From contig JABJOE010000007.1 in NCBI GenBank assembly GCA_018664485.1, forward strand, positions 68,353 to 132,352: a stretch of 64,000 nt of DNA, written 5' to 3'. Numbering within the stretch: the stretch's first letter is position 1; every line of letters begins with the position of its first letter. The position numbers were made by a program, and so were the translations under genes. Below are positions 1,561-61,261 of this stretch, piece after piece. The notes under the pieces were generated by a model. The model worked only from the letters and a program-made list of their open reading frames with translations, did no database searches and was not told the origin of the DNA. Origin of the DNA: Candidatus Uhrbacteria bacterium. GTDB taxonomy: Bacteria; Patescibacteriota; Patescibacteriia; UBA9934.

Positions 1561-1774
1561 ATTGTGATGCTCGCTAGCTATTTGACGATCTATCGTATCC
1601 GGTCTCCGCTCCTCAACAACGTACATATAGGTACGTTTTATTTCGGTGCTCAACCGTCAACGCTATATCATTCAAATATCTTCACTCGCTTTTCTTGGTT
1701 CATTCAAATATATGCACTCGATGTCTGGTGAGTATAGATATTTGAATGAAATGTCGCTTATCAGATAGCGAACA

Positions 1775-4084: not shown

Positions 4085-4708
4085 TTACCCTTTAGCTAAA
4101 GTGTAATACCAAACTCTACTGGCTCCTCCTTTATAAATTACCTTAGAGGCTGCGTACATCGTAGATCCCGTAGTCCAAACATCATCTATAAGTAAAACTT
4201 TTTCCTCTTTACGCTGGTTCCTGCTCATAAACGGAGAATCTTTTAAAGACCTTTTTCTTTGAATATTAGACTGCCTTGCCTGCGCCTTTGTATATTTCGC
4301 CCTCACTAAGATAGAACGCATTTCAAGATCCAATTTCACTGCCAGCCATTGCGCTATCTCTTTTGCCTGATCAAAACCTCTGCGATTCTTTTTCACTCTA
4401 TGCAGTGGAACATAGGTCACAACATCAATTCCGGCAGCACCTACAAATGACGACAAAACCGGAATCGCTATTTCCATTTTTTCTTTTAATAAATCCCAAG
4501 CGCTCCAGTCATACGAATACTTCCAAGCACACATCAACGACCGTGCTATCGGATCGGCATACAAAAACGAAAAAACGTGTCGTTTTCCAGACAGGTGAAT
4601 CGGAACATCTAACCAGTCAGAACGGCAATCACCACAAAGCAAACTACCTTCCACCCTACAACCTACGCAAAAGCGCGGGAAAACCGCGCGTACAAAAAAA
4701 GACCTCAT
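4085..4708 (-). CDS. comF: ComF family phosphoribosyltransferase-domain protein (competence protein F-like)
   Basis: It has an N-terminal 4-Cys zinc ribbon (CVGCRVEGSLLCGDCR) and a C-terminal PRTase motif (VLLIDDVWTTGSTM). The length is 207 aa. Confidence 0.75.
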   Translation of the reverse strand: MRSFFVRAVFPRFCVGCRVEGSLLCGDCRSDWLDVPIHLSGKRHVFSFLYADPIARSLMCAWKYSYDWSAWDLLKEKMEIAIPVLSSFVGAAGIDVVTYVPLHRVKKNRRGFDQAKEIAQWLAVKLDLEMRSILVRAKYTKAQARQSNIQRKRSLKDSPFMSRNQRKEEKVLLIDDVWTTGSTMYAASKVIYKGGASRVWYYTLAKG

Positions 4709-4786
4709 ACTCTCTCCAAAGTAAATGAATAATATTCTAAATGAAAATGTACAATGTTAAACACTGACCCCTAAAGCCGGAGCGGT

Positions 4787-5022
4787 CCAAATGTAAATTG
4801 AACGTTCTGATTTGAGGTAAATTTCGGTGCGCGGGTGATAAACGAGGAAACGTACTAATAGTACGTAGACGAAGTTTATCGGGCCCCAAAACAGAAAGTG
4901 TTCCAAGCTAAAGTTGAACGTTTGTATTTGTGATCAATTTCGGTGCGAGGGTGGCAGACGAGGAGACGTACAGATAGTACGGTGACGAAATCTGTCGGGT
5001 CCCACAAGCCGAAAGTGGTTCA
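4787..5022. repeat. two tandem copies of about 118 bp of a hairpin-rich element (candidate structured RNA) in the comF upstream intergenic region
   Basis: Unit A contains ...TTTCGGTGCGCGGGTGATAAACGAGGAAACGTACTAATAGTACGTAGACGAAGTTTATCGGGCCCC..., and unit B contains ...TTTCGGTGCGAGGGTGGCAGACGAGGAGACGTACAGATAGTACGGTGACGAAATCTGTCGGGTCCC... The paired segments GATAAAC/GTTTATC in A change to GCAGAC/ATCTGTC in B with compensating substitutions. An internal CGTAC-loop-GTACG hairpin is conserved. Confidence 0.5.
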
Positions 5023-5044
5023 AATACAAATGTTCAAGCGCGAA

Positions 5045-5599
5045 CTACTCTGCCCAGGTAAAGCTATCCACTAACCATGTATCCCCGCTTGCAATCATAG
5101 CAACCTCAATCTCCTGATAACGAGTCGTTGTGTTTGCCGGGCTATCAATTGACTCCGCTCGCTGTGTTGTAATCAATAAAGTTATAGATGAGTCAGAACT
5201 CGCTACCGTTTCAAATGTAAGCACGGTTGTAGAGACTCCATAATAACTCTCGCTGTCCTGGCCACGTGCACTCTCTGCAATTCCCAACAGACGATCCTGC
5301 AAAGAACTCGTTGCCAAAGCAGAAACTTCATCTATATTGTCATATCCGGATTCGCTCGAAAAACTACCAAAGCGTTCTACGAATACTCGAGCGATCGTCT
5401 CAGGCTGATCGGGTAAATCAGATGTATCAACCGTTTCAACTGGAGTGTCATCATCTTCCCCATCAATCACCTCAATATCATCGTCTTCCCGGATGTTCTC
5501 AATAATTGCCGGACGCATGAAGTACAAGAACAATAATATCCCCAATACTAGCAAAATTAGTACGGCGATAATTATTTCGATTTTATGTTTTCTTTCCAT
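5045..5599 (-). CDS. hypothetical acidic membrane-anchored protein (184 aa). It may be a VirB8-like bitopic component.
   Basis: It has an N-terminal TM helix (IIIAVLILLVLGILLFLYF) and an acidic extracytoplasmic domain. It is the last gene of the T4SS-like operon, immediately 3' of the VirB4-like gene. Confidence 0.5.
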   Translation of the reverse strand: MERKHKIEIIIAVLILLVLGILLFLYFMRPAIIENIREDDDIEVIDGEDDDTPVETVDTSDLPDQPETIARVFVERFGSFSSESGYDNIDEVSALATSSLQDRLLGIAESARGQDSESYYGVSTTVLTFETVASSDSSITLLITTQRAESIDSPANTTTRYQEIEVAMIASGDTWLVDSFTWAE

Positions 5600-5602
5600 A
5601 TT

Positions 5603-7525
5603 CTATTTATTTTCTTGCTTGCCACCGAATGAATCTTCAAACTCTTTGCGCGCTCGCTCGATCTCAAGAAGCTGTTCTGGATTCGTGGTAATAAGCTGAT
5701 CTTCTGTGTACGAAGCGACAACTTTCACAGCAGCATGTTTTGATCCTGCAAAGAATATCCCCTCTCCAACTGATGCCTCCAGCAGAAGGTAGCGCTCACT
5801 TTGAGTAAGGTTAAACGTTTTTGCCACGACATCAATTCCTGCTGGCGACTGCTTCATCAACATCTGCAGTGATGAGTTTGTAACAATCGCTTGCCCGTAC
5901 GCACTCTGCAAAAAGTCATTCACGTCCTGCGTGATCGTCGTTACTCCCAGGTAATATTTACGAGCACGTTTCACAAGAGCGAAAATAAACTTCGCAGAAT
6001 CCTCATGTTGCATGAGCCACCAAGCCTCATCAATCGTCAGCAAACGTTTTTTACGAACAGATCGCACAACATTCCAAATGTAGTTCACAATTGTATAGAT
6101 TGCCATCGGCCGTAGCTCATCTTCCAAATCACGCACAGAGAAAATAACTAACTGGTTATTCATCTGAACCGTTGTCGGCGAGTTCAACAAACCTGAGAAT
6201 GTACCTTCCGTATACTTTCGTAATCGATCTACCAAGTCCCCTGCACCATCCATTCCCTCCAGGATCTCCTGCAGGTCTTGCATGATTGGGTACTCTACGC
6301 CCTTAAGGGACGGAAGGTCCGGTGTAATATCTTTCTTTGCATATGCCTCCAAAATCGCACGATCGAGCGTAGAATCCTCGGCAGGCGTGAACCCTCGAGC
6401 ACCCTTTGAACCCATTGGCTGACCGATCATGATACGGAGTAGTCCCTTAATAGTAATAACAGCAGACCGCAAAATGTCTTCCACAGATGTACCCTCCCCG
6501 ATCGCTCGCGGCAAATCAAATGGGTTGATCTTACTTTCAGACGCAAGTGACACGTTCACGTAAGTACCACCCACAGCATCCGACAACGTGCGGTATTCCA
6601 TCTCCGGGTCAATAACAATGACATCTGACCCCATCATGAGTGAGCGCAGAATCTCCAATTTCACTGTATAACTTTTTCCAGCACCAGACGTCGCAAACAC
6701 AACAGCGTTAGCGTTCTGTAGTGAAAATCGATCAAATAGAATCAAGGAGTTATTGTGACGGTTGATACCATACAAAATCCCAGTGTCGCTCGTAAGATCT
6801 GATGAAATGAACGGGAATGACGACGCAATTGGCGACGTACTCATATTAAACGTAATCATCAGCTCATCATTTCCGATCGGAAGTGTAGAGTTAAACCCTT
6901 GCTCTGACTGATAAAATCCACGTTTCGTGTAAATAAGTTTTGAACCGAAAATTGACTCGATCTCATTACTTCGTCTATCTAGCTCTTCTTTATCGTCAGC
7001 GTAAATAGTAATGTAAAAAGCGAAGTGGAAGAAGTGCTCGATCCCCTGCGTTAGATCGTCTCGCAATTGCTCAACGTCCCGAAGAGCAGTTTCTTGAATA
7101 GGATCACGCGGTGCCCCCTTCTCATTATCAGAAATGATCTGAGCTTCCAAAATTCCAACCTTGTCCTTCAGCTGCTTCAAAATCGCTTCCGCTGGAATTG
7201 GATAGAAGAACATTCCAATGTCGATCGTTCCGTTATAGTTGATGATCGGTGACCCCCAACCGATGTTCACGTAACGAGGATATGTAACGATGAACAATGT
7301 TCTTACGAATTTTCCACCCAAACGTAGAAAGTCCGGATTGATCTGGAACGAAACCGGAGCAATCAAATCACGCACGGCGATTGTACCGCGGCGATAGATG
7401 CGCTCTTCTTCAAGAGTCTTTTTCTGATCGGCTGACGCCAACTGCTCTTGTGTCAGTTTCTTCGGACCTTCGTCCTGAGCCTTCTTTGGCTGATTTTTTT
7501 GAAATTGTTGTATGTCAATTGCCAT
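5603..7525 (-). CDS. virB4: VirB4/TrbE/CagE-family type IV secretion ATPase (640 aa)
   Basis: Walker A VVFATSGAGKSYTVK, Walker B LLTIDEAWWLM, and the N-proximal FIVTYPRYVNIGW motif are typical of Gram-positive VirB4 homologues. Confidence 0.8.
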   Translation of the reverse strand: MAIDIQQFQKNQPKKAQDEGPKKLTQEQLASADQKKTLEEERIYRRGTIAVRDLIAPVSFQINPDFLRLGGKFVRTLFIVTYPRYVNIGWGSPIINYNGTIDIGMFFYPIPAEAILKQLKDKVGILEAQIISDNEKGAPRDPIQETALRDVEQLRDDLTQGIEHFFHFAFYITIYADDKEELDRRSNEIESIFGSKLIYTKRGFYQSEQGFNSTLPIGNDELMITFNMSTSPIASSFPFISSDLTSDTGILYGINRHNNSLILFDRFSLQNANAVVFATSGAGKSYTVKLEILRSLMMGSDVIVIDPEMEYRTLSDAVGGTYVNVSLASESKINPFDLPRAIGEGTSVEDILRSAVITIKGLLRIMIGQPMGSKGARGFTPAEDSTLDRAILEAYAKKDITPDLPSLKGVEYPIMQDLQEILEGMDGAGDLVDRLRKYTEGTFSGLLNSPTTVQMNNQLVIFSVRDLEDELRPMAIYTIVNYIWNVVRSVRKKRLLTIDEAWWLMQHEDSAKFIFALVKRARKYYLGVTTITQDVNDFLQSAYGQAIVTNSSLQMLMKQSPAGIDVVAKTFNLTQSERYLLLEASVGEGIFFAGSKHAAVKVVASYTEDQLITTNPEQLLEIERARKEFEDSFGGKQENK

Positions 7526-7551: not shown

Positions 7552-8256
7552 TTAAAACCCTTCTTCAACTTGAAGTTCATTTAAATTGACCAGTCTCTGC
7601 GCATCGTAAATATCTGGGTTGTAAACAACGTAATACAACTCGATTAAGCTTTGTGTATCGAGAGCCTGACTCTTTAGACCCATACTCATAAGCCCACCCT
7701 GGATAATACTAACGCGCTGCATCAAATCATGTCGTCGCGTCTTGAACTTCTTCTCATTTAGCTTCACGATCGTAGCTGGCATGATCGCATCTGAAAGCTT
7801 AGACCAGAAGTTTCGCTTTTTGTCTGTAACTGGGTCATATGGAACAACAACGTAAAAGCGCTTCTGCATGATCTCTCCTAAATCTACCAGTTCGTTTACG
7901 AAACTCTTATAGTCACGGATTTGTGCCTTTAAAAGATCGTTATCGATTTCTGCCTCTCGCTTCTTAAGAGCGTCCATATACGCCTCAACATTCATCTTAC
8001 GAGACTGAATCACTACCTGAATTGGATAATCCAAACCATTTAAGAACTGCATGTAAGCTTGTACTGTCGCTTGCTGCTCTTCTTGGGACTTCAATGCAAA
8101 GTTAATACTTGCAACCATTATCACGGCGCGGAGAGTTCCATCCTTCAAAACAACTGTCCCCTCTCTAATTTCTGCAATATCTAAATATCGCTGGGTTGGT
8201 GGCCCAGGTTTCGCTTTGGCAAGCTTCTTTGATTGCATCTCTTGACTCTTTCCCAT
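7552..8256 (-). CDS. hypothetical 234-aa protein, possibly a separately encoded VirB4 N-terminal-like domain
   Basis: IREGTVVLKDGTLRAVIMVASINFALKSQEEQQ resembles the conserved start of the CagE/TrbE/VirB family. It lies 26 nt upstream of the VirB4-like ORF in a different frame. Confidence 0.5.
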   Translation of the reverse strand: MGKSQEMQSKKLAKAKPGPPTQRYLDIAEIREGTVVLKDGTLRAVIMVASINFALKSQEEQQATVQAYMQFLNGLDYPIQVVIQSRKMNVEAYMDALKKREAEIDNDLLKAQIRDYKSFVNELVDLGEIMQKRFYVVVPYDPVTDKKRNFWSKLSDAIMPATIVKLNEKKFKTRRHDLMQRVSIIQGGLMSMGLKSQALDTQSLIELYYVVYNPDIYDAQRLVNLNELQVEEGF

Positions 8257-8261: not shown

Positions 8262-8699
8262 TTATTCATCAGGGTGATAAACACCACCCGTATTAACTAC
8301 CAACGCAATATCTCCAAGACGTGACTTTTCAATCAGTCTTTTCTTTGGGATAACTGGCGCAGGCTGTTTTACAACTTTTTCTCGAAGTTGAGCTTTCAGC
8401 GTCCGCGTATCAACTGTCTTGTCCCAAACACGAAGCATCGGCTTACGGAAAGTCTGAATCATGTTTAGAGCAATGTAATGAACCGGTCGCCCGTTAACCT
8501 TCACGAAAGCAATGATGATTCCACCAGCAAGTACCGGAACACCCAAAGCTATAATAGCGATAATGCTGAGGAAAATTCTATAAATCAGAAATTCAGCTAA
8601 TACCGTTGCAAGTAAAATCAAAAATTGTCGCGCCGTAATAGGTCCGATAATCTTCGCCTCGGTATCTAAGAATTGTGGGACAACAAATTGCTCTGGCAT
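8262..8699 (-). CDS. VirB3/PrgI-like small membrane protein (145 aa)
   Basis: Two adjacent TM helices (ARQFLILLATVLAEFLIYRIFLSIIAIIALGVPVLAGGIIIAF) and a position immediately upstream of the VirB4-like genes match the Gram-positive T4SS gene order. Confidence 0.5.
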   Translation of the reverse strand: MPEQFVVPQFLDTEAKIIGPITARQFLILLATVLAEFLIYRIFLSIIAIIALGVPVLAGGIIIAFVKVNGRPVHYIALNMIQTFRKPMLRVWDKTVDTRTLKAQLREKVVKQPAPVIPKKRLIEKSRLGDIALVVNTGGVYHPDE

Positions 8700-8975
8700 C
8701 TTTAGAACTTATGCATTTGGACTATTATCGGCTTGCGGATCTTTTATTTCGCCCAACTTAATGGATAAAAGTATCCTGCGAAGCCGGACCAGGCTCTGCC
8801 TGGCGTTTTCTAGCCGACGTCCGCGCACCGAGACTACCCTCAAATGAATCAGTTCTAAACCTTACACCTATATTATAACATTAATACAAATGTCTCGTCT
8901 CGTACCAGGTTTATACATTTGTGGTCAGTTTAAGTGCGTGGGGAAAACCTAAATATTACAAAACCCAAAATCCAA

Positions 8976-18526: not shown

Positions 18527-21500
18527 CTACGGCGTAACGTAAATATAACCATCATAATACACCCATGGATCATAGCCCGTGGCACCGTCAGGATACCGTT
18601 CGAAGTTACAGGAATAATTACTTACCTGAGCTCCAGCTACACTCTCATCAAAACAACCTTCATCGTCATCACAGATTCCAGTACACCATCCCCAGTTATC
18701 ACGAACATGTACTTTCGGCTGATACACACATGAAATTTCATCATATGTACATGGACTTACCTCTAAGTCGTTTCGATCATTCTCCGTACAGGTTGGTAAA
18801 TCTTCTGGAGCCCAGCACCTATAAGTGTGGGAATAGTTGAATTCATTAGGATCGCAAGTGTTACTAGTCAATCCCCATGCAGTATCTAGATCACACTTAG
18901 ATAGGGTACTCGTGTCATCAGATCCATCATCTTCACCATCCTGCAGACCGCGGTGGTTTTTATAATAGTTAGCTGCATCATCTGATCCAGATGTATCTCC
19001 ATCACCCCAGTCCACAATGATTCTACGTATTGGCAATTGATTCTTGTCTGCTGCTGCAAAGAATTTTAATGTTGCTCGGTAATAACCTCCCTCAGCCTCT
19101 ATATCTCCTTCATTTGTACTGTTAACTGTTAGTGCATCATCCTCATCCTCGTGACAATATTTCGTTCCACAATCCTCAGTATCCACTGACCAGACAGTAG
19201 GCGCCGATCCATATGTCTCACGCACATCACTTCCTGCGTCGTCACCTATATAATCACTTAGTGTTGTACCAGAAGCTCCTAGCTCCGTATCTTCATCCGC
19301 ACCATCACAATCCCCGTCACATACCTCAACGTATGACCCTTCAATAGTGTCATAATCCCCTATTTCTTGCTCTGGACCCTCCCAGTACCAAACACCTTCA
19401 AAATTAGCAAAGATTGAATTCATGCGGGTAATAACGGTACTCACACTATCACTCGTATCCCAACCGATGCTTGAGAGATCAAATGCAGGACCATTCAACT
19501 GAACAGTAAAGTCTGCATACGATCTAGCACTTGGGTCATCAGAATCCGTACTGTACGTATAGTCACGAGCGCTACATTCGCTACCAGCACCCGTTGAAGG
19601 TACCAACTCATAACAATCTCCAGTTCCGGTACCAGCATCCTCACAACAAGCAGGAATACGTACTGGAGCTAATCCAACCGGCGTACCATCGTCATCGTCC
19701 AAATCTACAGGATCTATGGAGGCACCATAAGGACCAGGTGAACTTTCTAGATCGTAACCAAGAGTAGAGATAGTTGTATCATAATTCGTTGACCACAATC
19801 GATCAGTCCAAGCAGCATTCTCACCAGGTCCGTTAGAAGTTTTAATGATCACCGTACAAGCCGGATATTTAAGAGGGTTGAGATACGCTTGGTAAAAACC
19901 ATCCCCGCCATCTGTACAACTTGTATTGCTAGAACATCCGCTCTGATATCTTAGATTGTCATACGTATCATTATCTGTATCACGTGGAACTCCCGGAATA
20001 GCACAGCGCTTCGCCTCATCAGCTACCACGTCAAAATTACCATTTAATGCATACACCCTATTAGTATGCCCATCATAATTCGCACTCCTTGTGTCATACG
20101 AAGGACTTACACCGGCGCGGTCAATAATACTATCAATATCACATTCACCTCCCGTATCAATATCTTGCGATCCATACGGTACACATACATAAGGGCAATC
20201 GTTCGCTCCTCCATGGTCACACTGCTCAGCATAGTTACCACTTCCATCAAAACTTTTCTCACACTTACCCATAAGTGCGAAATACCCATCATTACAAACT
20301 GCATTATCATCACAGTTCAAGTAGTTCTCACTACTTCTACTTCTACAAACTTGATTACCGTGTGTTTCGGCACAAGAAATAGACTCTGTTGAATATCCAG
20401 ATACCGACTGAGTAAATCCATGTTGAGTAGAGTTACTTGTATAGAAGTCCATGTATAGCTGAGTGTACCCACAATAGTAAACCTCCTCGGTATACCCTGC
20501 CCCTGAATACTTCGCATACAAGTCAGTCGCACCAGATACCTGATCAACCGGGAACCATGTCACACACGCACCCAGAACTTCATCTCCATTAATGTTCATT
20601 CCTGTGTCGCGCTCCAAGCAATATCCTTCGAGTCCGAAGAAGTCCTGAGATCTCGTTATCTTGTCACAGTTTCCAATATGACCATCTGCTCCGTAAGATC
20701 CATCTGACACAAATGAATCATCATAGTATCGGCAGTCATCATCGTCCCCACATAGCGCTCCGGCAACCGGTGAATCGGAAGAACAAACACCATTAACATT
20801 TATATCGCCTAGATCTGTTTCGTACGCTACGAATTGATCTCCGGATGTTTGGGTACCGACTCGAACATATGAACATTCACATGTTTCACCCGGCGCACAG
20901 GTTTGCGCAGACGAGAACCCTGCCTTCCAAGATGACGGAAGCATTCCTCCATAATAGTTGTCTGTACCAATAGTTTCGCCGTCAGCCGCGATGTCATCCA
21001 ATGTTAGTTGCTCTTCGGTTGTTTCAAGATCTACTACAGTACCACCACTCGCTGTAGTAGTCGCTGTTGAATCATCAGTATGTGATCCATATCCAAGATA
21101 AGACCACTCTGTCACCACATCAATTGTAAACGGACTGTCAGCTTCTGGTTGCGCTCGGCAATATGCATCTTCCGTTACCTCTGAGTCGAATTGGTTTCCG
21201 TTCACCGCCAAGAAGCATGTTCCGCCATAACATGACCCTTCTTTCGCAGCAGCTGATCCGAAACATGTGGATTCTTCATCCTCGCATGTAAAACTAGTAT
21301 TACAATTACCTGTTTCATCCACACATGACCCGGCAAGACAAATATCAGTTCCACTACAGTCGTCATCTTCTTCGCATGTATCGGTTGACACTGTGTAACA
21401 GACTCCCGTAATACACGAATCGCCATCGATTTCACAGTCATCGCTTTCGGCACATGCAGATCCGGTGCTTTCACAATACCCAACGGTACAATCCTCTGAA

Positions 21501-24500
21501 TAATCTTCAGAACAGTTTCCGGCAGAGTATCCGATTTGGTAATCATTATCGCTTGTAAGTACACATCTTCCAGTATCCGTACTACCACCACTCTGACAGT
21601 ATGAGTCGTCTTCGCATGGTAGGCCGTGGTAAGTCTCCCATGGCAAATCATCTTCAGTATACTCATTACTCATGTCACAGAATCCTGCAGGTGGCGCTAC
21701 ATTCACCTGCGTTAAGTGCTGAATTGGGAAAATGTCTGGCACTGCATAACCTGAATACTCCTCTCCATACCAAGACACATCACGCGAAACATAGCGATCT
21801 GTATCAAACACGACAGCTGGATCGTTTGGATCCCACTCACTACACAATGAAGCGCTTGAGCTTCCGCCGTATTCTGTACACAAATCAATTCCGTCACAAA
21901 TAGTTCGATACTTTCCGGCATCTCCATCCCAAATAGTGTAGGAAGAAGAGCACGCAAGCCACTCAGAGCATGTACGGTCACGAGTAACCTTTAATACACG
22001 GTTTGAATCATTCTCAAGTCGATCGGGTTCAATAGCGATATTGACTTCATCTGTAAAACAGAATCCCGCGCTACTGTCGCCAGTATCTGTGTCATATGCA
22101 GGACAGTCTGAGTTATCGATACATGACCCACCGTACTCATATGCATCCGTAAAGTCTGGGTAGTCGGCTAAATCAAAGTCGGAATAAAGGAAACCTTTGT
22201 ACCAAGCACATCGTTGATCACACAAATCGATCTCGGTACCATCTGGCGTTACCATCAATGACGTAGCTTCCGAAGTACAGTCAATCGGATCAACAAGTGC
22301 GAATGCGCGATCACCATGCAATTCGTCAGCACGAGCGGACGAGATATACGTTGCAGATGAGTTGTAATCAGACGCCGTATCTCCAGCATCGTTAAACAGA
22401 GCACAACCAAGCTTTTGGCTGACCTGTCCATTACATTGCTGTGAAGACAATAGGTTCGTCTCATCAAGCGATGCGTTATCTATATAGTAGTAAGATTCAC
22501 CGTCTGTTGTTCCGTAAAATTCGTCATCATCGAAATCTAGGCGATCTTGGAATTCGGTACATGCTGAGTACTCAGGCTCACAAAGCCCTACCCAGCTATC
22601 AAATTCATCATCACCATTTCGCCAGATTCCACTTTCAGTTCCACCGACCAGGTATGTACCTGTGTCGACAGAACACTCTCCGTAACTTGTATTAGTAGTA
22701 GTATCGTAACAATCTGCGTCTGATGAACATGAAACTTCATCTGACCCATCAAGCTCTGCACAAACACCTGTTCCATAACAGAACTCGTTCGTACCATCTC
22801 GGAACCAACCGTCATACAACTCTCCATCAACCGTAATACTCGTCTTATATTCACAAGTATGTCCACCTGGGTTCTTGAAGTACCAAGTACCTTCAGATCC
22901 GGCATTCCATTCCTGACAGAACAATTCATCTTCTTCACAAAGAATGTCATCGTAACTATCTGGATCATTCATGAGGTATACAGTCTCCCAGCTATCTACA
23001 ACCGAAAGGTCTGCGCTAAACACCGGCTGTCCCAACTCCTCACAACCGTTATCTGCAGAGTTACATCGCACGGCATCTGTGACGATAGCGTAGATATCAC
23101 GATCAGCCTCAACTACCGTCGCATCTGGACCGTAATCTAGATGGAACATGTGAGCTTGTGTATCTAATAGATTCTCTGGAATGAACCAGTCTTCGAAATC
23201 GAACTCACAACTATCATCTCCGGCAATAATCGTACACAAAGCGGGAGATTCTTCATCGAATCCCTGACCGTCGTCGTCTATAAATAGATAACAACTTGTT
23301 CGCTCGTCACTCGTTGTAGGACTCTCCCAGTTTGTACCGTTACAATCCGAAGCCGATGAACATGCATCTCGTGATTCGCTACATAGCCCTGAATCACATG
23401 TCTCTACCTCATCAATATTGTTACACGTTGCATTGTATACAGTTATACCAGGCTCTTCTGACTCATTTGTCTGGTAGTACGCGTCACAACCAACCTTATC
23501 TTCATCACATAAAGTGCTGAAGGACTTCAAGTAAACAGTTTCAAAATCATGATCAGTGTACTCCTTACAACCAAGATGATATTGCGCAGACAATTCACCG
23601 TCTAGATTTTCATCACAAGATGCAGGAGTTACCCATGAATCTTTGATAACCGTAATATTGTCCTCCCCTTCTCGGAGAGTAACGTTGTCGATATAGAATG
23701 TTGATCCTGACGTTTCCGGCATGAATACCAACGATGTACCGTTTCCAAATTCTTCGTAGTCATCCTCGGTCATGTCGAGAGGTCCAACTGTATAGTGCTG
23801 CCAACCACTTTCAAGGTCGACATATGTTACCGCCTGACAATCGCTGTCGAGTGAACATGTAGTCGTACCGTCTGCAGAACACAAGCTGTCGCTACATACA
23901 GATCCGAATTCAGCCTCAAGTGCAATCGATGTTGAATCAAACTCCGTATCGAAACCAACGCTCAAGTCAGTAGTTCCCTTAGCCCAGAAGCTCAAGGTAT
24001 ACGTCTTTCCAGTAAAGAGCTGGTTATTCAACGTTCCACAGTAAGTATCTCCTTCGTCAACCGTACATTCACCTCCCAAGATGGATCCTGAGCTATCACA
24101 ACCTCCGTCAGTTGTACATTCAGCGGAACCGTATACATAAGTCCAAATATCCAAACCATCTGACCGGATTGAATGACCGTCTGTTGCGACTGATTCATTT
24201 GAAAGTAGTACGGATGTAGCGCTTGATGATTCCCAATCGGCAATCGTTCCACTTTCGAACAAATCCTTAAGTGCTACACGGCTATTTCCAGAGCTTCCAC
24301 CAGTATATTGGCGACAACCAGATTCTGTCTCCGAACACACAGTACTTTCTTCGCTATATCCAAAGTATCGGCATTCACCGTTGTCGTCATCGAAGAACCC
24401 ACCAGAACCATTACAGTTATCTTCTTGCTCGGAAGCGTCGTCGCCAACAATGTCAGTCTTTCGATACGCAACACAAGCGTTATTCACAGTTACAGTATCT

Positions 24501-27500
24501 GACCACTGACGGAAGTGAATTTCACCGTCAACATCGTAGAATTCTCGACAGTCTGGATTTTCAATAATATCAGCGTGAGAATCACAATCTTCAGTATCAG
24601 AATCTAGAGCACTGTCACCATCACTGTCATCGATACACTCTAAAGTCTCACCGTCAGTTGTTTCAGCCTGCCAAGTTGTACAAGGCGCAGCACCAGGGGC
24701 GTCATCTACTTCAGTGGAACCTGCATGCGTTATATCTGAATAACTATCCAAATCAGACTCTAGAAGCTCCCAAGTTCTCAACTGGTAACCTTCTTCATCT
24801 GATCCTTCCCATGTGTAGAAAGTAGCAGCACCATCGCTATCATCTGCCTGCTCTTCTGTGATACAAGCGCGCAAATATGTGTAATATTCTTTTCCTTCTG
24901 TAACTAAGTTTGTAAATTCGTCACAACCAACCGCATCTTCACTACATTGATCGGCGGTCTCTGGAATAAAGTAGATTGGGAACGCTCCGTCTGGCTCATA
25001 CAATGTCTCCTCCTGACGGAATGTGTCATACCCGGAACATTCTGACGGACATTCATCCAATTCAGTAACAACTGCTGTAACACCAGGATCTCCATTTGCC
25101 GGAGTGTAAAGCGTACAACCAGCTTCCTGCTCAGTACAAATTCCGGCATAGTCAGCACATTCGTCTGGATCACTCGCAGAACCGGTACATCCAAGGTAAG
25201 CCGGCGGCAAGATAACGGAATCAGTAGTGTAGTTACCTGTGTTGTATCCAGCATGATAAGACGATGCGTCTTCAGCCTGTTCTATTTGAACATCATCGAT
25301 CCAAACATCCGCACCTGAGAAACTTGTGATTGCGTAAATGTCTAAAGTTTTATCAGTAAGAATAGGTGTAGTGAACGTACACTCGAACCGTTCATATGAA
25401 GTTGAGTCTGGAATAGCGGTAGTATCTTCAATCAAAATTGATTCATACGTTGTACCGTCAGTATCAATGTCGGCAATACTACAGTCCCCTCTATAGCTCG
25501 TACCACTCAACTGAACCTGAGTACCATTTTCATCAGTAAGCCATACATACGCGTCAACACCGTTTGTATTCGCACTATCAGTCTGTGCTGCGTAGAAACT
25601 GAATGAATAGAACCTGCTTTGCTGAAGCGTTGTTCCATATTTGTAGAAACTACCAGAAGCACCTGGGCTAATTGCCGCATCTCCAGTACGTCCTACGTCG
25701 TTTTCTGTGTCATATGTGGCATCACTCAAAATCCATGTATCTGGCCACTCATCACTATTTGCATCCGTTTCAAAACCACCGTTTGTCATCATGTTAAGCC
25801 GAAGATCATCAGTACGTTCAATCACCTCTGAACATCCGCCAGAACCTTCGCTACATGTCTCAACATTAGCATTGAAGTAAATTCTATCCTTATAGACGTC
25901 TTCATCCTCATCTTCAGCCTCAACGCTAGGAATGGAAGGCCAGTCATATACATCTTCAGAATCAAGCTCCTTTACCGTCTCATACCAAGTACAACCCTGG
26001 TTATTAACGCTACAGTCTCCGTAATCTAAAGTATTTGTAAGGAAATCAACAGGAACATCGTCTACATCGGTAAACGACAAACAACTAGCGTACTGCTCAG
26101 GGCATTCATCCCCTCGGAAGCGCCAAATGTTTTTCTCACGTACACAATACCCATATCCACCAGTACAGTTTCCGTAAGCATCTTCTTGAACACAACTCTC
26201 AATATCAACACATTCTTCAGCGCGATCAGCTGTACCAGCACTCTTTAGAGTTTGTCCGTAAGCCAATGTTCGACACTGTGTATCTGGGAACTTCAATACC
26301 CAATCAGGATCGATAAGGTGACACCATGGGTGCTCATCATCCAATTCCCCATCGCTATTACACTGATGGAATCCATCCATGACCTCCTGAAGTGTAATCG
26401 GATCTGATTCAGAGTTTGCTGGTGATTCTACCGCTAGCTCCCAACCAGTTGAAATAACACGCGCGCGACGCATCTTTACTATATTGGAATGACAGAAACC
26501 GTAGGTGTAACATTTAGAATCTTGATCTCGAGCCGAATCTGCAGCCGAAATAAGTGGCCAGCCGCCATCGATGTAACCCTCTTCAACAGCCTCAATAAGT
26601 GTTAGCGGGGATCCGGCGTCAGCACGAGCAACGGCTGATGCAAACGACGTATCTATAGCACAGTTAAACAGCCCTGGTTGACTTCCGCGGAATGTAGCAG
26701 GACATGTTGAAAGTTCGGATAGTAATGAATAGTCCGTAATACTCAGAGGTCGGAAAGATAGAATATCCGAAAACTGCTCAGCAATTCGAGATGAATCGTA
26801 AGAAGAAGTTCCATCTGAATCAAACGGATCGTAATCAGAAGAATACTCAGGATAGCTTACCACCTCGTCAAAAAGACCTCCACGCCATCGACCCATTAAA
26901 GTCGTGATCAAAGTGTTTGTGAATATCGAAGCAGCACTTGATCCAATTCCAATAAGTGCCTCTGAGTTACTAAGCAACCCTATCGATATATCAGTTGGTA
27001 GAGTTTTTGCTGCGAACAATGATTGATACAGATCCGAAGACACAAATGACTGCGGCGTCAGTCGCGCTCCAGTAATCGGATCTACAACAGGCTTAAACCC
27101 ATCTGCTTCAGTATTTTCTTCAGCGCCAACAGTCGCCTCTTCAGCCGCTTGCTCAGTTGAAGTCATCAGGATTTCAAGTCCAGCTCCGATTTCGCTCACA
27201 CTTGGATCAAACCCTTCTGAAATAACGGAAAGAATCGCTACCGTCTTCTCCTCTGCTGTAATTTCTGAATCAAGAGAAAGTGTTGCAAGATAACCTTCGA
27301 AGTTTTTAGAAACCTCTGGAAAGTCACTCTCAGGAACTGCTGACTGTTGAGTTGATCTCAAACCAAGACGCATCGCCTGCAAGATATCTTCGTCATCCGT
27401 AAGATAGACTCCAAAATCCGGAAGAATACCACCGCTTGTAATATTATCAGGCACAATCCCATTAACTAGCTCGGCAACCACACCAGCCGCCAGATTGTCC

Positions 27501-27823
27501 ATGTAATCCTGCGTTGGTAGAGAGTTGTAGAGTGGGGCACCAGCATTTCCACCAGTTCCAACCCAAAGCGCTGACTCATAGGCAAACTTATTTGCCATGT
27601 AGCTAAGCAAGTTCAAAAGCGCCGCTGTAAGTGCCGCAATAAGCGCCTGCTTAATCACTGCCTTAACATTATCAACGATAACCTTTGCAGCATCACTTGC
27701 CACAACGTCTGGAGACAACGCATATACCGGCTTTGGAATACCGGCTACAAGTACAAAATTGAAAATCAGCGCTACAAGTATGAAGGCTGAACCAAGTCTA
27801 GATTTAAATCCTTTAGGAATCAT
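18527..27823 (-). CDS. giant secreted or cell-surface protein (3098 aa). It is Cys/Asp/Thr/Gly-rich with an N-terminal signal anchor and at least two CBM4/9-like carbohydrate-binding-type domains.
   Basis: A single uninterrupted 9297-bp ORF starts MIPKGFKSRLGSAFILVALIFNFVLVAGIPKPVYA. It has hundreds of Cys in short spacings (C-x-C and C-x3-C). Two segments match the CBM_4_9 pattern: NGGFE...W...RFYSFSFYAAQ...VWIDDVQIE and LFESGTIADWE...TYTLSFWAKG...FYIDNVTL. Only short antisense ORFs overlap it. Confidence 0.8.
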   Translation of the reverse strand: MIPKGFKSRLGSAFILVALIFNFVLVAGIPKPVYALSPDVVASDAAKVIVDNVKAVIKQALIAALTAALLNLLSYMANKFAYESALWVGTGGNAGAPLYNSLPTQDYMDNLAAGVVAELVNGIVPDNITSGGILPDFGVYLTDDEDILQAMRLGLRSTQQSAVPESDFPEVSKNFEGYLATLSLDSEITAEEKTVAILSVISEGFDPSVSEIGAGLEILMTSTEQAAEEATVGAEENTEADGFKPVVDPITGARLTPQSFVSSDLYQSLFAAKTLPTDISIGLLSNSEALIGIGSSAASIFTNTLITTLMGRWRGGLFDEVVSYPEYSSDYDPFDSDGTSSYDSSRIAEQFSDILSFRPLSITDYSLLSELSTCPATFRGSQPGLFNCAIDTSFASAVARADAGSPLTLIEAVEEGYIDGGWPLISAADSARDQDSKCYTYGFCHSNIVKMRRARVISTGWELAVESPANSESDPITLQEVMDGFHQCNSDGELDDEHPWCHLIDPDWVLKFPDTQCRTLAYGQTLKSAGTADRAEECVDIESCVQEDAYGNCTGGYGYCVREKNIWRFRGDECPEQYASCLSFTDVDDVPVDFLTNTLDYGDCSVNNQGCTWYETVKELDSEDVYDWPSIPSVEAEDEDEDVYKDRIYFNANVETCSEGSGGCSEVIERTDDLRLNMMTNGGFETDANSDEWPDTWILSDATYDTENDVGRTGDAAISPGASGSFYKYGTTLQQSRFYSFSFYAAQTDSANTNGVDAYVWLTDENGTQVQLSGTSYRGDCSIADIDTDGTTYESILIEDTTAIPDSTSYERFECTFTTPILTDKTLDIYAITSFSGADVWIDDVQIEQAEDASSYHAGYNTGNYTTDSVILPPAYLGCTGSASDPDECADYAGICTEQEAGCTLYTPANGDPGVTAVVTELDECPSECSGYDTFRQEETLYEPDGAFPIYFIPETADQCSEDAVGCDEFTNLVTEGKEYYTYLRACITEEQADDSDGAATFYTWEGSDEEGYQLRTWELLESDLDSYSDITHAGSTEVDDAPGAAPCTTWQAETTDGETLECIDDSDGDSALDSDTEDCDSHADIIENPDCREFYDVDGEIHFRQWSDTVTVNNACVAYRKTDIVGDDASEQEDNCNGSGGFFDDDNGECRYFGYSEESTVCSETESGCRQYTGGSSGNSRVALKDLFESGTIADWESSSATSVLLSNESVATDGHSIRSDGLDIWTYVYGSAECTTDGGCDSSGSILGGECTVDEGDTYCGTLNNQLFTGKTYTLSFWAKGTTDLSVGFDTEFDSTSIALEAEFGSVCSDSLCSADGTTTCSLDSDCQAVTYVDLESGWQHYTVGPLDMTEDDYEEFGNGTSLVFMPETSGSTFYIDNVTLREGEDNITVIKDSWVTPASCDENLDGELSAQYHLGCKEYTDHDFETVYLKSFSTLCDEDKVGCDAYYQTNESEEPGITVYNATCNNIDEVETCDSGLCSESRDACSSASDCNGTNWESPTTSDERTSCYLFIDDDGQGFDEESPALCTIIAGDDSCEFDFEDWFIPENLLDTQAHMFHLDYGPDATVVEADRDIYAIVTDAVRCNSADNGCEELGQPVFSADLSVVDSWETVYLMNDPDSYDDILCEEDELFCQEWNAGSEGTWYFKNPGGHTCEYKTSITVDGELYDGWFRDGTNEFCYGTGVCAELDGSDEVSCSSDADCYDTTTNTSYGECSVDTGTYLVGGTESGIWRNGDDEFDSWVGLCEPEYSACTEFQDRLDFDDDEFYGTTDGESYYYIDNASLDETNLLSSQQCNGQVSQKLGCALFNDAGDTASDYNSSATYISSARADELHGDRAFALVDPIDCTSEATSLMVTPDGTEIDLCDQRCAWYKGFLYSDFDLADYPDFTDAYEYGGSCIDNSDCPAYDTDTGDSSAGFCFTDEVNIAIEPDRLENDSNRVLKVTRDRTCSEWLACSSSYTIWDGDAGKYRTICDGIDLCTEYGGSSSASLCSEWDPNDPAVVFDTDRYVSRDVSWYGEEYSGYAVPDIFPIQHLTQVNVAPPAGFCDMSNEYTEDDLPWETYHGLPCEDDSYCQSGGSTDTGRCVLTSDNDYQIGYSAGNCSEDYSEDCTVGYCESTGSACAESDDCEIDGDSCITGVCYTVSTDTCEEDDDCSGTDICLAGSCVDETGNCNTSFTCEDEESTCFGSAAAKEGSCYGGTCFLAVNGNQFDSEVTEDAYCRAQPEADSPFTIDVVTEWSYLGYGSHTDDSTATTTASGGTVVDLETTEEQLTLDDIAADGETIGTDNYYGGMLPSSWKAGFSSAQTCAPGETCECSYVRVGTQTSGDQFVAYETDLGDINVNGVCSSDSPVAGALCGDDDDCRYYDDSFVSDGSYGADGHIGNCDKITRSQDFFGLEGYCLERDTGMNINGDEVLGACVTWFPVDQVSGATDLYAKYSGAGYTEEVYYCGYTQLYMDFYTSNSTQHGFTQSVSGYSTESISCAETHGNQVCRSRSSENYLNCDDNAVCNDGYFALMGKCEKSFDGSGNYAEQCDHGGANDCPYVCVPYGSQDIDTGGECDIDSIIDRAGVSPSYDTRSANYDGHTNRVYALNGNFDVVADEAKRCAIPGVPRDTDNDTYDNLRYQSGCSSNTSCTDGGDGFYQAYLNPLKYPACTVIIKTSNGPGENAAWTDRLWSTNYDTTISTLGYDLESSPGPYGASIDPVDLDDDDGTPVGLAPVRIPACCEDAGTGTGDCYELVPSTGAGSECSARDYTYSTDSDDPSARSYADFTVQLNGPAFDLSSIGWDTSDSVSTVITRMNSIFANFEGVWYWEGPEQEIGDYDTIEGSYVEVCDGDCDGADEDTELGASGTTLSDYIGDDAGSDVRETYGSAPTVWSVDTEDCGTKYCHEDEDDALTVNSTNEGDIEAEGGYYRATLKFFAAADKNQLPIRRIIVDWGDGDTSGSDDAANYYKNHRGLQDGEDDGSDDTSTLSKCDLDTAWGLTSNTCDPNEFNYSHTYRCWAPEDLPTCTENDRNDLEVSPCTYDEISCVYQPKVHVRDNWGWCTGICDDDEGCFDESVAGAQVSNYSCNFERYPDGATGYDPWVYYDGYIYVTP

Positions 27824-47906: not shown

Positions 47907-48228
47907 ACAGTCGGTACTCCGGCATGTCACGAACCCGCTACCTCAATCGAGGCGGCGGGTTCATTGCATCTAAAACTTTTATGTAATGTAGGGCTCTCAA
48001 GTCAAGTAATTAATTTACACAAACATAAAAACCACCTTGCGGCGATCCTATTCTCACAAATCAAAACACACTAGATTTGAGATAGTTTCGATGCCTACCT
48101 GCCGGCAGGCAGGAACGGGTGACAGACAATGAAACGCCAGGCGAAGCCTGGTCCGGCTCCGCCGGATACTTACATATATAAATAGAGTTCTATGTATAAA
48201 AAAGACCGACTTTTCAGTCAGTCTTTTT

Positions 48229-51373: not shown

Positions 51374-53170
51374 TTACATTTCTTTTAATACATCGATTCC
51401 GAGCAGATCCATCGCTAACGTCAACACATGTGCCACGGCCTGTGCCATACCAACACGTGTTGCCATCCCATCAAGATCATCACCAATAATCTGCACTTGA
51501 TGATAGTACTCAGAAAATAGTTTTGCAGTTTCAAAAGCCCATGCAGCAACCGGTGCCACATTATAACTTGAAGCAGCGCGAGCAACTACATCTGGATACT
51601 CCGAGAGTCGTCTGATCAACTGCTGCTCCAAAGGATGATTCAACAGATCTATATTGATCTCTCCCTTAGATGACGCCTTTTCCTGTACACGCATGATTCG
51701 AGCAATAGTGTAGAGGATATACGGACCAGTAAAGCCATCAAAAGACATCGCTTCTTTGATATCAAAAGTGATAATCGATTGAGGATCCTGTCGAAGCATC
51801 ATGAACGTCATCGCAGCATGCTGCAAAACGGCAGCCGTCTGTACAACCTGCTTATCAGACCAATCTTCATGTCGAGCACGAGTCTCACCCTCCAAATACT
51901 CTCGCATGTGATCACGCAAATATGCGTAAGTCACGATATTTCCCTTTCGTGAAGACATCGTACCCTCCGGCAAATTCACCATGTCATACGAAAGATGCGT
52001 GAGCTGTTTTTTAAATCCGAGACGCTTCAATGTAGCGAACAATTGCTGGAAATAAAATGACTGACGAACATCTACAACATATAGATACCTATCAGCGTCA
52101 TACTTTTCGTCCTTTTTAAACGCGAGAGGAAGATCCTTCGTGGCATACAAAGATGACCCATCAGATTTTAGTACAAGGAACACACTGAGATCCTCAGCCT
52201 CCAAGTCTACAACGGTAGCACCCTGACTTTTGGTCGCAATTCCGTCGGTCAACATCTTCTGCACCAACTTCTTTCCAGGTTCTTCAACTTCGCTTTCAAA
52301 ATACCAAACATCTGGCTCAACATTGAGCTCTTTGAAAATTTCACGGAAAGCGTCCATGCTCCACTCTCGAGTTTCTTGCCACTTTGAATGCCATGGTTCT
52401 TCCTGTGCCTCAAGATGACGTTGAACCTGAGCAATTTCTTCTTTCGCTTCTTCATGTTCCTCCGCGTACGTCGTAGCCTCCGTGTAAATCTCTCCTAACT
52501 TCTTAGCGCGGTCCTCCTTTGCAAACTCTTCATCCTTATGAAACTTATCCAATCCCCAAAGAGCCTTCGCAACATGGGCTCCAATGTCTCCGATGTATGC
52601 TGCAAAAACAACTTCATACCCACTAGCTTTCAAAACTCTCTGAACCGCAACCGGGTAAACTGCGTTTCGAATATGACCAACGTGGAATTCTTTGTGCGTA
52701 TTAGGCTGCGCTCCCTCGATTAAAACCTTCACCCCCTCACCCACCGTACCGTTTCCATATTTCTCTCCCATCTCTGCCACCTCTCCCAAAACCGCTTTCG
52801 TAAACGTAATATCATTTAAAACAAAGTTGACGTAAGGCCCAGTAGCCACCGTTTTTTCAATCAAATCTGTTGGACCAATCTTTGCCGCAAGTTCACGGGC
52901 GATCTCAACAGGATTAGCCTTCTGCTTTTTTGCCAAAACAAAACACGGGAAAGCAATATCTCCCATGGCCGGGTTTGGAGGAAGCTCAAGGTCATCAATT
53001 CCAATATCGACCCCCTTCCCAATAGCTTTCTTAAGAGACGCTAGTGCCTCCTGTTTTGCATTATGAAAAGCGTACATATGATAAGTAGAATACATTACAA
53101 AAATAACTATCGACCTCTGTTGATCTATTTTGACTGCAACCCTGTACATGTTCGTCATCATAGATTCCAC
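51374..53170 (-). CDS. argS: arginine--tRNA ligase
   Basis: HIGH-type motif FHVGHIRNAV and a C-terminal DALK-type anticodon-binding domain. The true start is probably the internal Met at about 53077. Confidence 0.85.
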   Translation of the reverse strand: MESMMTNMYRVAVKIDQQRSIVIFVMYSTYHMYAFHNAKQEALASLKKAIGKGVDIGIDDLELPPNPAMGDIAFPCFVLAKKQKANPVEIARELAAKIGPTDLIEKTVATGPYVNFVLNDITFTKAVLGEVAEMGEKYGNGTVGEGVKVLIEGAQPNTHKEFHVGHIRNAVYPVAVQRVLKASGYEVVFAAYIGDIGAHVAKALWGLDKFHKDEEFAKEDRAKKLGEIYTEATTYAEEHEEAKEEIAQVQRHLEAQEEPWHSKWQETREWSMDAFREIFKELNVEPDVWYFESEVEEPGKKLVQKMLTDGIATKSQGATVVDLEAEDLSVFLVLKSDGSSLYATKDLPLAFKKDEKYDADRYLYVVDVRQSFYFQQLFATLKRLGFKKQLTHLSYDMVNLPEGTMSSRKGNIVTYAYLRDHMREYLEGETRARHEDWSDKQVVQTAAVLQHAAMTFMMLRQDPQSIITFDIKEAMSFDGFTGPYILYTIARIMRVQEKASSKGEINIDLLNHPLEQQLIRRLSEYPDVVARAASSYNVAPVAAWAFETAKLFSEYYHQVQIIGDDLDGMATRVGMAQAVAHVLTLAMDLLGIDVLKEM

Positions 53171-53245
53171 TATGACTCCTTACATGGCCAGAATTTCGTC
53201 CAAAATATCTTCAAAATAGCTACGATCTTATTTCTGCAATGTATC

Positions 53246-54478
53246 CTAGCGCTTATTTACTAAGCGCACAAAGTGTCTCTTCCCGCGCTGTAGAACAACG
53301 CCGTCTTTTGCGCCTACGATATTCATATCGATACCAGTTACAACAACTCCATCGATCTTTACGGCCTTCTGCTCAATCATTCGACGTGCTTCAGATTTGG
53401 ACTTAGTAAGCCCACTCTCAACTAATACGTCAACGATATTCTTCTCTGAACTTAGCACAAACTCTTCCATTTCGTCAGGCATCTTCCCTTTTTGGAATAT
53501 ATTAGCGAAATGAGCAGCAGCTGCATCGGCAGCAGAAGCATCGTATAGCTGAGCTACAACCATGTGTGCTAATTCCGCTTTTACGTCGCGAGGATTCACG
53601 CCCTGCTCCATTGCAATTCGTTTTCCATCGATCTCTTCCATCGACATGTCAGTTACCAATTCAAAGTATGGCAGAATCATGGAATCATTCATCGCCATCA
53701 ACTTCCCGTACATATCTTCAGGTACATCGCTCAAAGCAATAAACCCACCTTCAGACTTGCTCATCTTCTTACCCTCATCGTTTGTAAGAAGTTTTAATGT
53801 AAGTACAATCTTTTCCTTACCGGCCATAGACTTCATCAATGTTCGACCGGCAAGCATGTTAAACGTCTGATCAGATCCACCGATCTCAACGTCAACGTCC
53901 ATCGCAACAGAGTCATACCCCTGCATAAGCGGGTACATGAACTCATGCATGTAAATCGGCTTCCCGTCCTTAAGGCGATTCGCAAACATATCACGCTCAC
54001 TCATCTGCTGCACCGTAAAGTGTGATGCCAGTTCCACAACATCAGCAAATGACATCTTTGAAAGCCACTTATCGTTGAATTTTATTTTGACCGCATTACG
54101 TCCTGTGAATTTCAAAATCTTCGATGCCTGCTTTTTGTATGTAGCGGCATTTTCAAGAACCTGTTTCTTTGTAAGCTGAGACCGAGTAGCAGACTTATCT
54201 GTAGGGTCTCCAATCATTCCAGTGAAAGATCCAATTAACCAAATCACTTCATGCCCCATGTCCTGAAACTCCTTCAACTTTTTAAGCTGAAGAGCATGTC
54301 CGATATGTAAAAACGGAGCTGTCGGATCAAACCCAACATAAATACGCAAACGCTCACCCTTCTTAAGGCGCGCTTCGAGCATCTCACGCTTTGGGTAGAC
54401 TGTGTCCACTCCACGTGTAAGTAAATGTTCGATTTTCTCAGGGTTTATATCAGTAGCCATATTAACGTAAACTTTCAA
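53246..54478 (-). CDS. tyrS: tyrosine--tRNA ligase
   Basis: FLHIGHALQLKKL...LIGSFTGMIGDP, KMSKSEGG, and a C-terminal S4 domain. Confidence 0.9.
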   Translation of the reverse strand: MKVYVNMATDINPEKIEHLLTRGVDTVYPKREMLEARLKKGERLRIYVGFDPTAPFLHIGHALQLKKLKEFQDMGHEVIWLIGSFTGMIGDPTDKSATRSQLTKKQVLENAATYKKQASKILKFTGRNAVKIKFNDKWLSKMSFADVVELASHFTVQQMSERDMFANRLKDGKPIYMHEFMYPLMQGYDSVAMDVDVEIGGSDQTFNMLAGRTLMKSMAGKEKIVLTLKLLTNDEGKKMSKSEGGFIALSDVPEDMYGKLMAMNDSMILPYFELVTDMSMEEIDGKRIAMEQGVNPRDVKAELAHMVVAQLYDASAADAAAAHFANIFQKGKMPDEMEEFVLSSEKNIVDVLVESGLTKSKSEARRMIEQKAVKIDGVVVTGIDMNIVGAKDGVVLQRGKRHFVRLVNKR

Positions 54479-61073: not shown

Positions 61074-61261
61074 CAAAACACACTAGGTTTGGCTATTTTC
61101 GACTCACGGGTCCCGACAGACTTCGTCTACGTACCAATCAGTACGTCTCCTTGTCTGCCACCCGTTCATCGAAACTATCTCAAACCTAGTGTGTTTGTAT
61201 TTACACTGGAATCAATCAAAAGATTGATCTTTTTTTATGCTGAATTTATTGAAGTGATCAA

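Follow-up and report, generated by a model that had tools for sequence, protein, structure and literature searches.

What are the two hairpin-rich units that stand in tandem at positions 4787-5022 of this stretch, between the 3' end of a type IV secretion system (T4SS) operon and the start of comF? The stretch, 64 kb of a contig from Candidatus Uhrbacteria, is referred to below as the window. An earlier note, made from the sequence alone, had proposed a structured RNA upstream of comF, with tandem riboswitches as a possible parallel, and had named a neutral tandem duplication as the outcome if additional homologues showed no covariation. Additional homologues were sought in the window and in relatives, and they were found, with strong covariation; that refuting scenario therefore fails. 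The pair probably consists of neighbouring copies, one complete and the other with an internal deletion, of a palindromic repeat of about 125 nt that is dispersed between genes in Candidatus Uhrbacteria and behaves most like the REPIN and ERIC repeats and other miniature repeats that form hairpins. Related genomes carry this element at different positions, and compensatory change maintains its structure. The repeat family is undescribed; the kind of repeat to which it belongs, the palindromic intergenic repeat, is already known.

The tandem pair and its fold

Tandem Repeats Finder reports a single array at the locus (4794-5017, period 116, 1.9 copies, 80% matches), with the units arranged head-to-tail. 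The core TTTCGGTGCG(C/A)GGGTG has two exact occurrences in all, at 4822 and 4938, and a CGTAC-N5-GTACG hairpin is present in units A and B alike. The stem GATAAAC/GTTTATC of unit A becomes GGCAGAC/ATCTGTC in unit B, and the substitutions are compensatory. The pair, its shared core and hairpin, and the compensatory changes thus stand as the earlier note had described them, and two of its measurements are revised: the units are 77-80% identical rather than about 70%, and the phasing into 118-bp units cuts through the elements. The unit borders drawn by the covariance model are listed in Table 1; both units are on the minus strand, and the pair reaches 15 nt past position 5022.

The 5' end of the model, called the L end here, lies 7 nt past the stop codon of the preceding 184-aa gene in copy B, and copy A follows head-to-tail 7 nt downstream of B. 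For copy B, the minimum free energy (MFE) is -39 kcal/mol (z-score -5.4) when the minus strand is folded and -52.4 (z-score -7.7) for the plus strand. Relative to B, unit A lacks about 14 nt of the 5' outer arm, and its MFE on the minus strand is only -28 kcal/mol. By this comparison, A is a damaged copy and B a full-length one. A 3263-nt JGI metagenome contig (Ga0233429_1025234, our locus L091) is 100% identical to window positions 2684-5946; the same population, carrying A and B, was therefore present in that sample.

Each copy of the element is predicted to form one rod hairpin of 121-131 nt, with an MFE of -40 to -75 kcal/mol and folding z-scores of -4.5 to -10 on both strands, using RNA or DNA parameters. 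The rod is predicted for both strands, whether as RNA or as single-stranded DNA. From its base upwards it comprises a variable outer stem of about 17 bp, a helix P1 of the TTTCGG/CCGAAA type, a GC-rich helix P2, a variable helix P3 and a conserved tip hairpin (CGTAC-loop-GTACG), with small asymmetric loops between the helices. The conserved sequence is central, in the tip hairpin, P1, P2 and the small asymmetric loops, while the outer stem differs among copies yet is nearly perfectly paired.

The conservation of this fold was measured on 33 base pairs of a single rod, as defined by a covariance model (R1) that was built from four window copies and run with filters off. In an alignment of 29 non-redundant copies, 87.9% of the cells at these pairs are canonical, compared with 59.8% in shuffles (maximum 63%) and 31-41% in slid registers, and 32 of the 33 pairs have changed on both sides; this alignment was fitted to the model and so leans towards the structure. 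A MAFFT alignment of the four window copies, which is independent of the covariance model, gives 90.8% paired cells vs 80.2% when shuffled, a value reached by none of 500 shuffles, and here 13 of the 33 pairs have changed on both sides. An alignment of 15 copies by MAFFT alone lost the inner helices, and model-based alignments were used instead. The covariation and conserved secondary structure proposed earlier are therefore borne out: although the copies have drifted to 50-70% sequence identity, compensatory change has kept the hairpin.

Some simpler roles for the rod were tried and set aside. A terminator scan of 4000-5700 places no intrinsic terminator within A or B, and the stems of the element, at about 55 bp, are not followed by a consistent T run. 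Inspected by eye, the loops do not fit a K-turn or a hairpin ribozyme. As guides, the outer stems have no matching loci in the window except related copies.

Copies in the window and in related genomes

The window holds at least 9-10 copies or remnants of the element, or about one copy per 6-7 kb. All are intergenic and both orientations occur (nhmmer and two covariance models; Table 1). A profile of the two units alone finds 61096-61184 (E 7e-16), 57353-57434 (E 5e-5) and, weakly, about 8805-8856; across nhmmer and the covariance models, E-values for further window copies run from 1e-5 to 1e-29. The second covariance model (R2), built from relatives' copies only, recovers the set found with R1 and adds 62225-62327 and 53105-53231.

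About 25 further copies are found in 16 of about 87 related Uhrbacteria loci, at gene junctions that are not orthologous. Within the T4SS operon, for example, the occupied junctions are 649-aa/PrgI and 184-aa/comF in the window, PrgI/TraC-like in L001 (which also has a copy after its LeuRS gene) and TraC-like/VirB4 in L011. Gain and loss of copies at different junctions is the simplest reading. The copies are mutually 50-77% identical. They also accumulate side by side: two lie about 100 nt apart after a RecG gene in L098 (16258-16613), and four lie within 1.4 kb around tRNA-Ser and tRNA-Arg genes in L035 (18412-19802). Tandem arrays such as A/B are thus a property of the family, and not the riboswitch hint for which the earlier note had taken the arrangement.

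These numbers bear on the possibility that A and B are a neutral local tandem duplication of a palindrome, with pairing kept by hairpin-templated repair (quasi-palindrome correction). Template switching in inverted repeats is an established mutational mechanism that yields apparent compensatory changes, and a duplication would account for A and B being the closest pair in the window (77% identical to each other in the pairwise comparison, against about 70% to copy C). It would also suit the symmetric counts of G-U and A-C described below. It leaves unexplained, however, about 35 homologues that lie at different sites or in different genomes, and the asymmetric internal loops are conserved rather than corrected to perfect palindromes. 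We consider this explanation quite improbable for the pair as a whole; hairpin-templated repair may contribute to the complementarity of the arms.

When viral contigs were searched with two tip patterns, one of the 15 matches proved to be a true copy. It lies at 7-121 of L106 (IMGVR_UViG_2888060440_000003), at the edge of a predicted viral contig, with a partial second copy at about 135-180; the contig may represent a prophage border or a misclassified contig of the candidate phyla radiation (CPR). With a single true copy among the 15 matches, a phage origin is not indicated.

The comF junction

The location given in the earlier note holds: the pair is flanked by the 184-aa gene, the last of the T4SS cluster, and by comF. 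These two genes are 336 nt apart in the window. They overlap in L098 (VirB4 identity 88%), overlap or are at most 10 nt apart in L094 and L095 (both 91%), and are separated by 6 nt in L092 and L093 (where the 184-aa protein is 47% identical), 28 nt in L096 (88%), 43 nt in L008 (86%) and 106 nt in L001 and L011 (89% and 92%). Homologues of the VirB4-like ATPase are assigned by their annotation to Candidatus Uhrbacteria, Parcubacteria or Patescibacteria. No copy of the element is present at the 184-aa/comF junction in these nine relatives, of which the R1 and R2 scans for copies at the comF site covered a part. A metagenome scan with the 184-aa protein returned only L091 and two distant loci, and no strain-level presence/absence polymorphism.

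The 106-nt spacers (L011 12583-12688, L001 12479-12584) contain a hairpin of their own of about 85 nt (GTTGTTGCG...CGCAAC), which is common to both loci and has no relation to the element.

Could the pair nonetheless be a tandem riboswitch or other cis-regulatory leader of comF, as was first proposed? Like the tandem riboswitches (glycine), it consists of two adjacent structured units upstream of a gene, here on the same strand as comF, and it shows covariation. Unlike them, it lacks a conserved position, a fixed orientation and a junction-type aptamer fold: the site is empty in the nine relatives, including those with 88-92% VirB4 identity, the element stands beside unrelated genes and tRNAs in both orientations, and the fold is a simple rod without a multi-helix junction. 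Rfam gives no match at E <= 10 for 4000-6000 or at E <= 5 for L035 18200-19950, nor any relevant match in the whole window. In addition, unit A is truncated, and a sigma-70-like site lies between it and comF. Because the junction is empty in relatives and copies occur at other junctions, a conserved cis-regulator of comF is excluded, and we regard any riboswitch-like RNA specific to comF as highly improbable. Covariation in a tandem pair is thus insufficient for calling a cis-regulator, since dispersed palindromic repeats share that signature, and a false lead for a comF riboswitch is removed.

The position of the pair matters for comF in another way. Translational coupling of comF to the last T4SS gene is suggested by relatives, in which the two genes abut or overlap; in the window 336 nt separate them, and comF expression must therefore have been rewired in this lineage. 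If the pair is a product of the dispersed repeat, insertion of B and A would have parted comF and the T4SS operon. In the transcript of the operon, both hairpins might then act as a 3' stabiliser, a barrier or a processing site after the last T4SS gene, and comF would be read either through the hairpins or from the promoter-like site at 4731-4760. Ligand sensing would play no part.

Positions beside tRNA genes and gene ends

The element shows a fixed polarity beside tRNA genes: of 19 copies adjacent to a tRNA, 18 have the L end towards it, the exception being the reversed copy in L041. The tRNA-Arg(GCG) gene has a copy 0-12 nt upstream in L021, L023, L024, L029, L032, L035, L037 and L046, and a short version of the element occupies this site in L001. 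Others are upstream of tRNA-Ser (L032, L035, L037) or downstream of tRNA-Arg (L035, L022). Where a copy stands between protein genes, its L end typically comes within 0-10 nt of a stop codon, or in some cases a start codon, and the other end is usually farther away.

When the occupancy of the tRNA-Arg upstream site is placed on a neighbour-joining tree of VirB4, one clade of seven is occupied (with one absence), as are L037 with L046, L041 (reversed), and the window with L001. L011, L008, L005 and many others have no copy there. Either it is a hot spot of repeated insertion, or an old presence has been followed by several losses. The tRNA-Arg copies in L024, L032 and L035 have similar outer stems and different, still-paired inner stems, which suggests compensatory change in place.

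In the window, no nucleotide separates copy C from the CCA end of the preceding tRNA-Val(GAC) (60997-61073), and the shortened copy at 62225 is 12 nt upstream of tRNA-Ile(TAT) (62136-62212, minus strand). Copy D is flanked by two divergent genes, assigned by Pfam: the ValRS gene (54462..57137, minus strand) and a gene at 57486..58634 (plus strand). Copy E, antisense to the T4SS operon, has its L end 3 nt from the PrgI start codon; it keeps the outer stem, P1 and P2, and carries a 78-nt insert in place of the inner stems. The fragment next to it at 8895-8945 is, from its sequence, probably what is left of another, decayed copy. The remnant at 48058, about 90 nt downstream of tRNA-Val(TAC), differs from copy C at 2 of 17 positions of the outer arm.

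Two observations concern the surroundings of these copies. Copy C is followed at 61218-61240 by a canonical terminator-like hairpin with a T run (AAAAGATCAATC-TTTT-GATTGATC-TTTTTTT); tRNA-Val, copy C and this hairpin may therefore be one transcription unit. The remnant at 48058 is split by a GC-rich palindrome, CCTACCTGCCGGCAGGCAGG, at 48094-48113. This palindrome (CCTACCTGCCGGCAGGCAGG / CCTGCCTGCCGGCAGGCAGG) recurs upstream of tRNA-Arg in L057, L063 and L090 and may represent a second, REP-like family of short repeats.

Table 1. Copies of the element and neighbouring features in the window (positions are those of the whole stretch)
Feature	Position	Strand	Scores and remarks
Copy F	1568..1691	+	R1 32.4 bits, R2 34.7 bits; 7 nt upstream of tRNA-Arg(GCG) (1484-1560, -)
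comF (ComFC-like)	4085..4708	-	Phosphoribosyltransferase domain and N-terminal zinc ribbon; Pfam PF00156, weak PF18912 match
Sigma-70-like site, TTAACA-18-AATATT	4731..4760	-	Between copy A and the comF start; consensus scan only, no evidence of function
Copy A	4796..4911	-	R1 103.5 bits, model positions 10-126 only; R2 51.6 bits, positions 15-111
Copy B	4912..5037	-	Full-length rod hairpin, 124-126 nt; R1 128.9 bits (E 2e-28), R2 91.4 bits
184-aa gene, last of the T4SS cluster	5045..5599	-	Open reading frame; synteny in relatives
VirB4/TraC-like	5603..7525		Upstream of the 184-aa gene; Pfam
TraC-like	7552..8256		Upstream of the 184-aa gene; Pfam
PrgI	8262..8699		Upstream of the 184-aa gene; Pfam
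Copy E	8703..8859	+	R1 38.7 bits (E 1e-6), R2 35.7-51 bits
Probable decayed fragment beside E (ACAAATGT...GGTACGAGACGAGAC...ACATTTGT)	8895..8945		nhmmer 8916-8942, E 0.08; inferred
Truncated remnant related to C	48058..48140	-	75% identical to C over 74 nt; weak nhmmer match
Copy H, weak candidate	53105..53231	+	R2 26.3 bits (E 0.001), R1 24.5 bits; between two minus-strand genes
Copy D	57331..57456	+	R1 109.2 bits, R2 68 bits
Copy C	61074..61200	+	R1 133.7 bits, R2 100.2 bits; MFE -52.6/-62.9, z -9/-10 on the two strands
Shortened copy, 97-103 nt	62225..62327	+	R2 30.4 bits (E 1e-4); 71% identical to F

Apart from these features, the window contains a single open reading frame of 3098 aa at 18527..27823 (minus strand), which would encode a giant protein.

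Mobile repeat or functional RNA?

Several observations weigh against a dispersed, mobile repeat. Across the 29 copies there is neither a target duplication nor a shared flanking motif, and the terminal consensus, (T/G)A(G/A)AAC..., is weak. (Flanks of the form TA...TA occur in about five copies and belong to the palindrome.) No transposase or other autonomous partner is linked to the element. No copies are near-identical, the best pair being 77%, so recent transposition is not shown; gain and loss would follow solely from the comparison of fairly divergent genomes, in a sample of about 1.5 Mb around one conserved locus. When empty and filled sites are compared, the flanks are too diverged to reveal exact insertion points or target duplications. 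The 'anti' strand, opposite to the model orientation (the plus strand of the window for A and B), gives the better fold in 29 of 30 copies (mean -55.0 vs -45.2 kcal/mol). Finally, the structural conservation, the near-constant length and the fixed polarity at tRNAs would also fit a functional RNA module.

Such a module would be a structured RNA with a host function, under selection as RNA rather than passively carried as mobile DNA. It would signal processing or stability in operon or tRNA precursor transcripts, serving as an RNase III or exonuclease barrier or in RNase P release at the tRNA 5' end. In fourteen copies, 0-12 nt separate the element from the 5' end of a tRNA, and the strand that folds better runs in the direction of the tRNA; others lie 0-10 nt past stop codons. 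Where tRNA-Arg has no copy, it stands 10-25 nt after the upstream gene and is therefore probably co-transcribed with it; an element at that site would lie within the transcript. The tRNA-Arg copies in L024, L032 and L035 and the length of 121-131 nt point the same way. However, occupancy of sites is patchy even among close relatives, the L041 copy is reversed, orientation within operons is mixed (about 11 to 6), and unit A and other copies are visibly decaying. We therefore judge an RNA module alone rather unlikely; a host function at the RNA level is plausibly compatible with mobility.

The pairs themselves give little sign of a preferred strand. Among the 33 modelled pairs, G-U occupies 25 cells and A-C 28, i.e. 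equal numbers, and in these helices no single functional RNA strand is therefore indicated; the symmetric counts argue against one. The 'anti' strand has twice as many G-U pairs in its MFE structures, and it also folds better when shuffled, so the asymmetry is partly base composition. The folding difference traces to the internal loops, which are purine-rich on one strand.

This bears as well on the idea that A and B are paralogues in a family of independently transcribed, trans-acting small RNA genes. The many copies, the conserved structure, the conserved sequence of the tip and P1/P2 and the better-folding strand with its purine-rich internal loops would agree with it, and with no Rfam match the family would be new. 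Against it, the strand asymmetry shrinks under composition control and is absent in the core pairs, and the outer-stem arms match only other copies in the window. Nor is there a conserved flanking promoter or terminator: copies sit flush between genes, with no room for signals of their own, and in the scan of 4000-5700 the one promoter-like and the one terminator-like minus-strand site upstream of comF are both outside the units. We think a small RNA family improbable.

If the element is mobile, how might it spread? A trans-acting enzyme could copy it via a single-stranded hairpin intermediate, and it would spread slowly. Landing or persistence would be favoured beside tRNAs, gene ends and existing copies, giving pairs like A/B. 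Among enzymes, an HUH/Y1-type transposase would be the obvious candidate class, and a link to Y1 is a hypothesis by analogy with REPINs. No Y1 gene is present in the 64-kb window. Y1 (IS200/RAYT-like) transposase genes are present in L005 (318-899), L011 (891-1481) and L028 (1044-1571), flanked on both sides by their own palindromes of 23-29 nt, e.g. AATACGCCACC-N-GGTGGCGTATT in L011. With these palindromes, the genes have the classic REP-RAYT layout, here in CPR genomes. The flanking palindromes do not resemble the element and give no direct link between it and these genes.

The traits that suit both a repeat and an RNA module also allow a broader view, which we regard as a minority possibility: more than selfish DNA, the family would be a hitherto unrecognised, structure-constrained class of hairpins of CPR bacteria, nearly constant in length at about 125 nt and flush at tRNAs and gene ends with fixed polarity. 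It would be either an RNA module for punctuation, stability or processing (RNase P or RNase III release from mRNA-tRNA transcripts) or a single-strand hairpin transposon that recognises stems, such as tRNA acceptor stems, instead of a target sequence. The polarity at tRNA borders makes RNA processing vs structure-directed insertion a tractable question in uncultured organisms. CPR genomes are reduced and densely packed, and repeats are thought to be scarce in them. Here, a new repeat family outside Rfam is documented in Candidatus Uhrbacteria; its copies reshape operon junctions, and in this case comF is split from the T4SS operon.

Comparison with known repeat families

Our literature search on repeats in CPR/Patescibacteria found nothing relevant; the comparison here is with families from other bacteria. 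Two types fit poorly. In a classical, DDE-transposase-dependent miniature inverted-repeat transposable element (MITE), the termini are conserved inverted repeats; here the outer arms pair within a copy and differ between copies, and the 29 copies have no consistent duplication. An IS200/IS605-derived palindrome-associated transposable element (PATE) does not fit either, as no conserved tetra- or pentanucleotide precedes the left end in the 29 copies. Correia/NEMIS repeats of Neisseria and other MITEs are co-transcribed and can be RNase III targets, terminators or promoters. The element resembles them as a short, non-autonomous hairpin repeat between genes, and lacks both their sequence-conserved terminal inverted repeats and their target duplication (TA for Correia).

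The ERIC/IRU repeats of enterobacteria and the bcr1 repeats of the Bacillus cereus group, about 127-155 bp long, are imperfectly palindromic and lie in intergenic regions that are transcribed. Like the element, they occur in both orientations, have compensatory, hairpin-preserving substitutions and are patchy among related genomes. Unlike it, they have a much higher identity between copies, bcr1 has a defined target duplication, and the taxon here is CPR. We know of no report of flush placement at tRNAs with fixed polarity for either family. The divergence is closer to that of the Rickettsia palindromic elements, which are ancient, about 50-70% identical and 100-150 nt long, with a conserved predicted structure. 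Some of their copies are also beside RNA genes; they are often in frame inside protein genes, whereas copies of the element are all intergenic.

The closest behaviour is that of REPINs, extragenic hairpin-forming doublets of REP sequences that often form tandem arrays and whose spacers are non-identical yet hairpin-forming (PMC3337134); they are mobilised by RAYT transposases, for example in Pseudomonas fluorescens SBW25 (PMC3116915, PMC3337134). The element likewise forms a long rod as a single strand, and all its copies are extragenic. In both cases no two copies are identical while the hairpin is kept, the repeats persist for long in a lineage, and tandem arrays are frequent, those of the element being A/B, the four copies in L035 and the two in L098. 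Neither is known for target duplication, and HUH/Y1 genes are present in genomes related to the window. The differences are that the element's copies are far more divergent, at 50-77% identity, and that the Y1 genes of the relatives are bordered by other palindromes. REPINs also have conserved terminal REP palindromes and a free centre, whereas the element has variable termini and a conserved centre. This conserved centre with variable ends, together with the near-constant length and the fixed polarity flush at tRNAs, is what makes the element unusual among repeats of its kind.

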